A DNA stretch of 64,000 nt. Source: Opitutales bacterium (GTDB lineage: Bacteria; Verrucomicrobiota; Verrucomicrobiia; Opitutales; PNEW01). The notes below the pieces were generated by a model that saw nothing but the letters and a program-made list of their open reading frames with translations, made no database searches and was not told the DNA's origin. The stretch is from assembly GCA_965197745.1 (NCBI GenBank), contig CBDANS010000006.1, forward strand, positions 992,001-1,056,000. The letters are read 5' to 3'. Shown piece after piece: positions 59,775 through 61,564 of the stretch. Position 1 is the stretch's first letter. Each line of letters begins with the position of its first letter. Position numbers and translations under genes: made by a program.

Positions 59775-59828
59775 TAATTTTAGGTAACTATCCCTTGACA
59801 ACATGTAAAATGTGTGTATATTAAAGGT

Positions 59829-60213
59829 ATGAATAAGATAAAAAATAATAAATTCGCGATTTCTAAATTTAATAAACAATACCCTGATGACAATACATGT
59901 CTTCACGAAATATTTTTAACTAAACACTCTAGCGATAAAGAATGTCATCACTGCCATAGACCATTCCGGTTTTATAAAGTAGCAAAACGCAAATGCTATG
60001 AATGTAGCTATTGCGGGTATCAGGTGCATCCTTTAGCCAATACGATCTTTCATAAATCATCGACACCGCTTAAAAATTGGTTCTTTGCTATCTATCTTTT
60101 CTCCGTTTCTAAAAATGGTGTATCAGCTAAGGAATTAGAAAGACAATTAGGTGTCACCTATAAGTGTGCTTACAGGATGGGAAAACAGATAAGGAAACTC
60201 TTTAATGAAAATA
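59829..60213 (+). pseudogene. IS1595 transposase N-terminus (Zn ribbon + HTH), catalytic domain missing
   Basis: CHHC...CSYC, TIFHKSSTPL..WF.AI.L....K.GVSA.EL.RQLGVTYK.A.RM; cut by the IS3 end at 60214. Confidence 0.9.
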
Positions 60214-61564
60214 TGATCGGACCCCGTATTTCGTATCAAATTTTAAGTGAGAGAACTACCGGGTGTTAATGGTTTTAGGATTGATGTATATGAGAGATCT
60301 TGGCGCAGTGAGGGCGTAGCCCGAACGCGGCCAAGAGCGGAAAGGAATGTGACAAACTCTTGTGGGCTTTTAAAGCCTAATCGACTGTGGGGATGTTCAT
60401 TGTTATAGGTCTGACGCCATTGTTCTATTAGCACTTGCGCTTCAGCCACGCTGAGCAACACTTCACGGTTCAAACACTCATCGCGTAAGCGGTTGTGAAA
60501 CGACTCGATGAAACCGTTTTGCCAGGGACTGCCCGGATCGATATATATCGCCTTGATCTTTTTGTCGGACAACCACTGCTGCACCTGATGAGCAATGAAT
60601 GGCTTCGCATGTCGTCGCTTCGCTCCTCGGAACACTGCCGTTGTCACTGCGGATATAGCTAGGAACTCCCTCTTCATCGATGGTTTCGCTGAGTACCGAG
60701 AGAACATCGGTTGAGGTGAGCTGTCGAGCTACCCGGATGCGTAAACATTTACGCGTATATGTCTTCGCTTCGCTTGAGTGTCGTCGCTTTCAGCTCCTCG
60801 GTACATCGATCAAGGTCATCATCTTTAGCATACCGCCATTGTCTGTACGATCATGGACAAAGTCCCAGGACCAGACGTGATTGCGACCGGTTGCTTTAGT
60901 AGGGAGCCCAGTAGAGATCCCCTGACGGTGTCTACGCTTTTTTGGTGGCTTTACCTGTAAGCCCGAAGAACGTCGCACTGCCTGTACAAATTTCCTGCTT
61001 GCCGCCCAACCTTCTTTCACCAGCAAGGCACGAATGCGCCGGTAACCGTAACGGGGATGTTCCCAGGACAAGGTCAAAATCCGCTCGGCCAATTGCTGAG
61101 CCTTCTTACTGGCCTGCTTGGGTCGGTAGCTGTACGTTGACCAACTGAGGCTGAGATAAGCACAAGCCCTCTAAAACGAGCACAGCCCCTTCTCAGCCGC
61201 ATCTTTTACTGCTCGCTTCTTCTGCTTTGGGCTCACCATTTTTTTGAGAGCGTTTCCTCCAACACCCGAAGCTTGAGCATTTGATCAGCGAGCATCTTCT
61301 TCAGCTCCGTATTCTCCTTTTCCAGCTCTTTAAATCGCTTCGCATCAGCCAGCTCCAAGTTGCCATACTTTTTGCCCCAGCGATAGAAGGTCTGTTCACT
61401 TAGGTTGTTGCCGTGGCAGACTTCCTGCACGGTTTTGCCCGTATCGGGCTGCCGCAGTATTGCTATGATCTGTTCTGTTGTATATCTTTTTCTTTTCATT
61501 GAGGTTATCTGTTTATCCCGATAACCTCTCTCTGTTAATGATACCATTTTTGGGGGTCACTCCA
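60214..61564 (-). mobile_element. IS3-family (IS407-like) element, decayed
   Basis: TG...CA imperfect TIRs (tgatcggacccc.../tggagtgacccc...), orfA 61233-61499, A7 frameshift site, orfB motifs YGYRRI, WSWDF, SDNG, PWQNGFIESF; TAG at 61171-61173 and two small insertions. Confidence 0.92.
61233..61499 (-). CDS. IS3 orfA (HTH) transposase subunit
   Basis: MKRKRYTTEQII.IL...SEQTFYRW.KKYG...LEKEN.ELKK.LAD; ends AAAAAAATGGTGA. Confidence 0.9.
   Translation of the reverse strand: MKRKRYTTEQIIAILRQPDTGKTVQEVCHGNNLSEQTFYRWGKKYGNLELADAKRFKELEKENTELKKMLADQMLKLRVLEETLSKKW

Follow-up and report, generated by a model that had tools for sequence, protein, structure and literature searches.

The repeats SDR4-6 of Nostoc and Anabaena are reportedly mobile, 21-27 nt long, able to form hairpins and without a known enzyme. 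Rickettsia palindromic elements (RPEs) of 100-150 bp are said to land in frame inside coding sequences and to be translated in working genes, and bypass elements, such as those of T4 gene 60 and the mitochondrial byps of Magnusiomyces, are GC-rich, hairpin-prone stretches of 27-55 nt inside coding sequence. In Neisseria meningitidis, according to the consulted sections of its description, the 94-aa GIY-YIG enzyme of the Ssn system binds single-stranded DNA at its own hairpin and makes its cut a few nucleotides upstream, and the NTS-ssnA-NTS arrangement was noted by the authors to resemble an insertion sequence (IS) (Chenal et al. 2025, PMC11893778). Repetitive extragenic palindromic (REP) sequences with a CGTC tag have no known dedicated transposase, as far as the consulted sections of Di Nocera et al. 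2013 (PMC3733652) report. Here we describe short DNA units that interrupt the transposase gene of an IS3-family element in a 64,000-nt stretch of the genome of an Opitutales bacterium (assembly GCA_965197745.1, contig CBDANS010000006.1, positions 992,001 to 1,056,000; hereafter the window). The genome holding the window (G000; other G numbers denote related genomes) comprises 4.45 Mb in 7 contigs of a 92%-complete assembly. We consider it probable that a REP-like DNA hairpin module, non-coding and specific to this lineage, was inserted at the DNA level and that the inserts are copies of it.

The interrupted element, ISa, is a 1351-bp dead copy on the minus strand (60214..61564), recognised by blastn against the other genome copies and by matches to the rve domain, with ends TGACCCC.../...GGGGTC. 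Its orfA, taken from the list of open reading frames (ORFs) (61233..61547, minus strand), encodes 104 aa of helix-turn-helix type and ends at an A7 slippery run located in the sequence at 61236-61246 on the same strand. The second gene, orfB, lies in the -1 frame after this run, and the two are presumably joined by a -1 frameshift as in other members of the IS3 family. The motifs WSWDF, SDNGSEF and IESFH are present in the IS3 orfB translations. In the window copy orfB is interrupted three times on the minus strand: by an in-frame TAG (SF*RAC, 61171-61173, seen in the alignment of copies), by 43 nt at 60761-60803 and by 32 nt at 60601-60632. The coordinates and sequences of the two inserts had been given exactly by the first-pass annotation, made from the sequence alone. 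The rve domain (PF00665) has 82 matches in the genome and matches the ISa copies piecewise, because the inserts split it. We read the window copy as a dead, non-autonomous IS, since removal of the inserts leaves the frame broken and contigs from RNA libraries keep them. The TAG is carried by a high-copy ISa subgroup, and the 89.7% subgroup has CGA at that position. Recoding of TAG or TGA is ruled out, as the TAG is confined to one subgroup where the other has CGA; it is an ordinary nonsense mutation.

The genome contains 36 full-length ISa copies, about 17 of them at least 99% identical (blastn), and their alignment separates filled from empty alleles. Insert 1 (60761..60803, minus strand), 43 nt long, starts with TACCGAG, holds an in-frame TGA and, judged by the empty alleles in the genome, replaces the A of GATG-A-ATAT; it breaks the IDE/YTR motif in the context ...ATCGATG[43 nt]ATATACGCGT. 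Insert 2 (60601..60632, minus strand) replaces the A of AGTG-A-ATTC with 32 nt in the copy alignment, breaking the SDNGSE/F motif (...GGCAGTG[32 nt]ATTCATTGC), and its net gain of 31 nt shifts the frame. A third site, empty in the window copy (60468..60485, minus strand; CGCGATG AG TGTTTGAAC, at RLRDE/CL), holds 36-37 nt in other copies. Site 1 is filled in 29 of the 36 copies, site 2 in 33 and site 3 in 9, and not one copy is free of all three inserts. The empty alleles read GATG-A-ATATACG, CAGTG-A-ATTCA (or GAGTTCA) and GATG-AG-TGTTTG, and the filled ones GATG[43]ATATACG, CAGTG[32]ATTCA and GATG[36-37]ATGTTTG. One A of TGAAT is thus exchanged for the insert without any target duplication, as had been deduced from the window alone; the empty alleles of the genome copies and of assembled contigs bear the deduction out.

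Contigs of public sequencing runs display the same pairs of alleles. In a DNA run, contig joints skip the 43 nt (with T in their place, plus strand) and 33 nt (with CT in their place), and an RNA-run contig holds a 37-nt insert at site 3. A fourth site, also empty in the window (60514..60527, minus strand; CCCTGGC-A-AAACGG), has 43 nt in place of 1 nt in the genome copy at C6:565961 and in the contigs of all four runs, where the joint 60519/60521 exchanges the nucleotide at 60520. Filled and empty alleles at four sites support the sequence-specific, DNA-level process that the first-pass annotation had proposed. An assembly artefact is ruled out: the inserts are identical in 29-33 of the 36 copies and are carried by contigs of four public runs. 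Ancestrally, ISa had three sense-strand TGAAT sites, each of which is filled in some copy, and the window copy retains none. A search for empty sites by their flanks recovered only IS site 1 (26 pairs).

The inserts are shared among IS families. A second IS3 family, ISb, is represented by four uninterrupted copies (C4:137535, C7:407057, C7:1353329 and C7:1901942), and the 32 nt of insert 2 are also found at the homologous Glu codon of ISb: at this site, 35 ISa-type alleles are filled and 5 empty, and 37 ISb-type alleles are filled and 4 empty. Insert 3 is present in a third IS3 family as well. Homologous positions in three IS3 families thus carry the same variants of the insert, and every insert in an IS is sense-oriented. 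No intact source of ISa transposase was found among the genome copies of the 92%-complete assembly. It is plausible that ISb copies are mobilised in trans, the four uninterrupted ones supplying the transposase. Next to the window ISa, on the plus strand (59814-60269), lies an open frame of 151 aa whose N-terminus is rich in Cys; it resembles the front part of an IS1595-type transposase and is apparently cut off by the IS3 element.

The two inserts belong to a much larger family of units. The consensus consists of T(A/T)CCGAG, a short hairpin whose loop is of the GNA type or has 4 nt, and CGAC, usually followed by AT; in IS copies a second, GCGAAGC-type tail follows the unit. The regular expression suggested in the first-pass annotation has 272 matches in the genome against 72, 60 and 79 in three Markov-2 shuffles, clearly above chance. 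A strict pattern, TACCGAGN{3,22}CGACAT (that is, TACCGAG, 3-22 nt, CGAC and AT), occurs 111 times in G000 and twice in the reversed sequence used as a control, and the window holds 2 strict units where 0.06 are expected. The claim that every unit is followed by AT was too strong: AT follows 86 of the 159 units with hairpin-like cores, AC comes after the first module of insert 1, and AA after site 4.

Constant ends and a variable hairpin core, the architecture first proposed for the units, hold across the family. The 111 strict units contain 66 distinct cores, in size classes of 5, 9 and 16 nt, and pairing is kept among them. In the 9-nt cores 64 of 75 cells are paired, against 53.4 in shuffles, and none of 2000 shuffles is as high; in the 16-nt cores 70 of 84 cells are paired, a value reached by 4 of 2000 shuffles. 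The loops are predominantly GAA or AAA, and the stem-adjacent GA...GA bases could, to judge by their sequence, form tandem G.A pairs. Folding of intergenic units is mildly favoured in a nearest-neighbour DNA model (z -1.05 and -2.16). Rfam 15 gave no match over the IS or over the miniature inverted-repeat transposable element (MITE) described below, save a chance-level miRNA hit (E 0.13), and literature searches found no published description of these units. A duplicated 250-bp stretch of G000 (C6:654281-654525 and C7:1685297-1685541) contains, in a single repeat cluster, four units that represent both orientations.

Units are located in IS3-type transposase genes, in MITE ends and between genes. 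MITE ends account for about half of the strict units, and most units are outside genes, in either orientation. In silico removal of the 106 units that fall in a long open frame revealed no non-IS gene broken by a unit: 77 of them lie in IS3-type genes, and for the other 29 keeping the unit gives a frame no shorter than its removal does (in one case there is a difference of one codon). These 29 are chance matches or leader positions. The expectation that units reside in IS and repeat DNA and not in core genes was therefore confirmed.

Four distant segments of the window had been assigned to the same family, and three of them are members. A solo 20-nt unit, TACCGAGGGAGAAGCCCGAC (2519..2538, minus strand; sequence reading and pattern match), lies inside an (N)AATCCG heptamer-like array. 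A 286-bp MITE (2599..2884, plus strand), recognised by reading its terminal hairpins and pairing its ends, carries two more: TACCGAG-TCCCGCAAATGAGGGA-CGAC (2638..2664, plus strand, pattern match) at the GC-A-AT foot of the left terminal hairpin, where empty ends read ...GAAGC-A-ATCCAGG, and a minimal 16-nt unit, TACCGAGCGCAGTGAC (2839..2854, minus strand, sequence reading), nested in the right terminal hairpin. The fourth segment (11606..11634, minus strand), read beside a decayed remnant of a terminal hairpin (CATTGTGGAGAGTGTAGCGACGAAGC), is degenerate and fails the pattern. Heptamer-like arrays ((N)AATCCG, AAATCGA), found at 2480-2545 of the window and in many intergenic places, often host solo units and recall the heptamer repeats of cyanobacteria. 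The 16S rRNA gene of the window (6895-8473, minus strand) spans 1579 nt against a model of 1533 positions, about 46 bases extra, and no unit-like pattern was found in it. A second rRNA operon that could serve as an empty reference for the window MITE is absent from the genome, which has a single one.

Strict units are abundant in a few relatives only. Among 40 relatives, G001 has 140, G002 157, G015 57 and G040 227, and the others have 0-4; of 400 further Verrucomicrobiota genomes one is raised (21 units) and the rest are at background. The constant ends are identical across three families of the order Opitutales, and the cores vary, with TTGAAAA in G015 and CGAAYG and CCTGTAAAGG in G040. The exact insert 2 (34 nt including AT) occurs in one other species representative only, G001, at 10 loci. 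From this distribution the unit family appears to be lineage-specific. A second conserved context, ...TAGCCAC[unit]AT(G/T)...CAAAGGCACAAGA, is common to G000 and G040, and thus to two families (C4:214037, C7:652; L061-L071).

The copies also record exchanges between elements. Two ISa subgroups with local flanks about 20% apart are distinguished in insert 1 by 1 of 43 nt. Between the subgroups a single difference among 75 insert positions compares with 179 differences among 1327 positions outside (P 2e-4), a contrast that is due in part to a low-divergence 3' block; given this block, the ISa copies are mosaics. On a tree of these copies, which the mosaics and erratic branch lengths make unreliable as a test of single against repeated insertion, the three sites need at least 3, 1 and 5 state changes. 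In G001, 3 of the 10 insert 2 loci (L024, L026 and L030) are chimeras with ISb on the left and ISa on the right, joined exactly at the insert, and the G000 copy at C7:1673285 is a reverse chimera joined at the 32-nt insert; the parent families are about 76% alike. The inserts thus act as recombination junctions between IS families, and recombination at them can also spread the inserts between copies.

The window MITE belongs to a group of elements that includes a nuclease gene. Its inverted terminal hairpins, TTGTCATTGCGAGG-hairpin-GACGAAGC, lie at 2599-2637 and 2855-2884. Such terminal hairpins share a CGAG-hairpin-CGAC core with the units and are their commonest landing site: 54 units directly adjoin a terminal hairpin of the form TTGTCATTGCGAGG-hairpin-GACGMRGC. 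In G000 we counted 153 hairpin ends, and pairing them yielded 42 short elements of 98-436 bp. Three elements of about 460 bp, two intact and one broken, enclose an ORF of 94-102 aa with a GIY-YIG domain (PF01541 over residues 2-74, E 2.9e-13). The best solved relative of its product is the UPF0213 protein BH0048 (1zg2, E 2e-5), and NCBIfam returned a weak, sub-threshold match only. The MITEs, including that of the window, are deletion derivatives of this mini element, since many MITE ends keep the 3' end of the gene. The two intact elements (C7:1541878-1542337 and C7:1545544-1546003) are identical, 3.7 kb apart and in opposite orientation; each holds a 102-aa ORF between inverted GTCATTGCGAGG hairpins, and no target duplication is visible at their ends. 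The broken copy is at C6:787806-788269. The first-pass annotation had correctly stated that the window contains no enzyme gene, and the flanked GIY-YIG gene that it proposed to look for is this element elsewhere in the genome.

The ends of the GIY-YIG element themselves form filled and empty pairs. Both are empty in G002 (…GACGCGGC-A-ATCCAG…), the 5' end is filled in G000 and the 3' end in G001; in the filled ends AA is exchanged for the unit plus ATCTTCCAT, and the right boundary of the unit is ambiguous there. A gene between inverted hairpin repeats that are also dispersed is found in G000, G001, G002 and G015. Of the five unit-rich genomes, these four contain close homologues of the nuclease (at least 64% identity); the 36 unit-poor ones contain none. 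Terminal hairpins number 51 in G000, 41 in G001, 67 in G002, 218 in G015 and 33 in G012. Metagenomes contain at least 563 relatives of the gene; among 80 examined, GTCATTGCGAG-type hairpins lie upstream in 77, downstream in 77 and on both sides in 75, and a unit was seen at 1 of the 80, a doubtful case. No autonomous element bracketed by inverted TACCGAG units was found in G000, and the same search in 36 sampled G040 loci returned only MITEs of 78-222 bp.

In its layout this element resembles the Ssn system. In the consulted sections of PMC11893778, the SsnA gene of N. meningitidis is likewise a GIY-YIG gene of about 94 aa between inverted hairpins, accompanied by tens to hundreds of gene-less copies; the NTS consensus CGTCATT...AATCYRG is matched by the outer letters here, GTCATT...AATCCAG; and both sets of repeats are rarely inside genes. 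The published SRM pattern, HGTCWYN(0-2)YYVSBRHN(0-5)WNVSBRGN(0-2)RNCYNB, matched 16 times against 19 in the reversed control, and it was found in none of 85 terminal hairpins and none of 111 units (reverse strand, plus or minus 12 nt). As the pattern is at chance, we do not class the repeats here as SRMs. They differ from the Ssn/SRM repeats in that TACCGAG...CGAC is a second, smaller module, nested in hairpins and IS genes, and in that one unit-rich genome lacks the nuclease; an insertion polymorphism with one base lost is not described in the consulted sections of PMC11893778.

REP sequences and the REPIN/RAYT systems, as presented in the consulted parts of PMC3733652 and PMC3116915 (Bertels & Rainey 2011), are likewise short palindromes with an unpaired conserved tag, in hundreds of copies that are mostly outside genes, though some lie within them. 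The reverse strand of the unit, (A)TGTCG-hairpin-CTCGGTA, carries a tag of the CGTC/TGTC type known from REPs. The unit stems are of 2-6 bp, against 8-9 bp in the tagged REPs, whose stem begins with AT and closes on a loop of 4-5 nt; both unit ends are conserved, and there is no CCA tail. Units are also single and not inverted doublets, and no Y1 gene flanked by units was found. Closest in concept are the Nostoc SDR4-6 repeats, which are reportedly nested in other repeats, have sites defined by presence and absence and are linked to short tandem repeats; they come from a different phylum and are not known to share sequences with the units. RPEs differ in length from the 16-45-nt units, which within genes occur in dead transposase genes only. 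Taken with these systems, the units are a variant of the REP/SRM-like hairpin repeats, with unusually clean insertion evidence.

If the inserts are copies of such a module, it would enter (G/C)-A-AT sites with the replacement of one A and no target duplication, and in the window it would have struck two of the three sense-strand TGAAT sites of the IS3 transposase gene, destroying the gene. The near-identical filled copies would have arisen by transposition with transposase supplied in trans, or by recombinational spread of inserts between copies. The units encode nothing, and therefore an enzyme acting in trans must make or spread them. This enzyme would recognise the hairpin together with the constant ends, probably while the DNA is single-stranded, and the cut DNA would then have to be rejoined. 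The candidate is the single-domain GIY-YIG nuclease of 94-102 aa encoded in the same genome. From its genomic setting, the nuclease of the mini element of about 460 bp is the best candidate driver of the units; we regard its involvement as possible, if on balance doubtful.

Several observations weigh against this explanation or parts of it. G040, with the most units (227), has no small GIY-YIG gene, and no GTCATTGCGAG hairpins were found in it; G012 has its 33 terminal hairpins yet only 1 unit. The link between nuclease and units is incomplete because of these two genomes, and three of the four genomes that have both units and nuclease are close kin and not independent. GIY-YIG nucleases only cut, and no ligating or strand-transfer activity was identified. 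No replication-strand bias of units relative to GC skew was seen in G000, and the main unit class of G040 is divided into 47 plus-strand and 47 minus-strand copies that are interleaved; there is therefore no support for a lagging-strand mechanism. The unusual hairpin stability expected of inserts 1 and 2 in the first-pass annotation was not found on nearest-neighbour DNA folding against shuffles (z +1.57 and +1.25), a model that leaves out the special stability of GCGAAGC mini-hairpins. Finally, a plain view of the inserts as dead DNA leaves by itself unexplained why insert 1 is near-invariant and why about 17 near-identical copies are filled.

The units might have no dedicated mobility at all, and represent a few templated insertions, produced by template switching onto nearby hairpins and spread by IS transposition and recombination. 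The ISb/ISa chimeras joined exactly at insert 2 (3 of 10 loci in G001, and the reverse in G000) fit this explanation, as do the mosaic divergence of the subgroups and the likeness of the IS insert tails to pieces of the terminal hairpin (AGCGAAGCGAAG...). We nevertheless hold it to be improbable: the same ends recur in 57-227 copies per unit-rich genome, in three families of the order, around many cores and between many flanks; the identical one-nucleotide replacement is found at separate sites; and the same position of the terminal hairpin was occupied in independent events, which affected the 5' end in G000 and the 3' end in G001.

Alternatively, the units may owe their mobility to another enzyme, such as a Y1 protein of about 330 aa (IS200/RAYT-like) or an unrecognised protein. 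G040, with its 227 units and no GIY-YIG gene, has 46 matches to Y1_Tnp, and G015 has 17, but G035 has 26 matches and no units. The single Y1 gene of G000 is frameshifted and not flanked by units, and Y1 genes at the 12 loci examined are not bracketed by units, the terminal repeats of the G040 copies being unrelated. As Y1 counts in the relatives do not track units, the HUH/RAYT link of the first-pass annotation found no backing, and we consider this alternative more improbable still than that of templated insertions. G040 has a multi-copy element (L011-L014) with perfect terminal repeats (AAATGGGGACGGACCT...) and a Y1_Tnp-domain gene of about 340 aa; the 3' part of that gene is the landing site for two different MITEs, one of them ending in a TACCGAG unit.

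The proposal that the units are a host tool for silencing ISs, by targeted insertion into conserved transposase motifs, draws on the high proportion of copies struck (all 36 ISa copies and 37 of 41 ISb site-2 alleles) and on the presence of the same insert variants at homologous sites of three IS3 families. The struck sites, however, are simply all sense-strand TGAAT sites of the element, and the at least 3, 1 and 5 state changes on the mosaic tree amount to few independent events. Units also occur between genes and in MITE ends, the latter holding about half of the strict ones. The filled copies kept multiplying, so nothing was silenced at the family level. A dedicated IS-inactivating role, raised in the first-pass annotation, is thus not needed to account for the sites and is very unlikely.

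The remaining alternative is that the inserts are removed or skipped at expression, as mini-introns or by a bypass like those of T4 gene 60 and the mitochondrial byps, and that filled copies still make transposase. The commonest and youngest copies are filled ones (about 17 share 99% identity or more, and none of the 36 lacks an insert), insert 1 is near-invariant amid flanks that diverge by about 20% and is frame-neutral (net +42 nt), and the IS inserts are all sense-oriented. Against this, inserts 2 and 3 bring net gains of 31 and 35 nt, the Glu codon is not rebuilt by any exact excision, and the high-copy subgroup has the in-frame TAG. In contrast to bypass elements, the units have no matched pair of take-off and landing codons around either insert, as read from the sequence, and frames are left unrestored (insert 2, +1), a difference on which the RNA contigs alone cannot decide. 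Contigs of two metatranscriptome runs span inserts 1, 2 and 3 without gaps, although they are contigs of relatives in which DNA is possibly present; the sole joints that skip an insert are empty DNA alleles of diverged copies, in contigs and not reads, so that a rare spliced form might escape notice. Rfam gave no match, and most units, whichever their orientation, are outside genes. Splicing or ribosomal bypass is unlikely, and to our mind the least credible of the alternatives, because contigs from RNA libraries retain the inserts, their removal leaves the frame broken, and intergenic copies occur in both orientations.

The reading of the inserts as copies of a hairpin module inserted at the DNA level would have consequences for these Opitutales and for hairpin repeats in general. 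The multiplication of REP-like hairpin repeats has long been an open question. Here high-copy IS elements serve as built-in reference alleles, and the many clean pairs of filled and empty alleles show the target to be (G/C)-A-AT, the junctions to have lost one base without a duplication, and the module to have constant ends; the lineage also provides a short list of candidate enzymes. For annotation, the finding accounts for dozens of IS3 copies in these Opitutales that look recently active and are nevertheless all broken. The modules can also serve as junctions for recombining diverged IS families. In a bolder version, which we think rather unlikely, the 16-45-nt non-coding hairpin modules would be the smallest site-specific mobile DNAs seen at single-base resolution: an Ssn-type nuclease or a partner enzyme would excise or copy them into (G/C)-A-AT in exchange for one nucleotide, and they would then act as portable recombination sites that reshuffle IS families. 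If true, this would give Ssn-type nuclease/hairpin systems a directly testable insertion chemistry.

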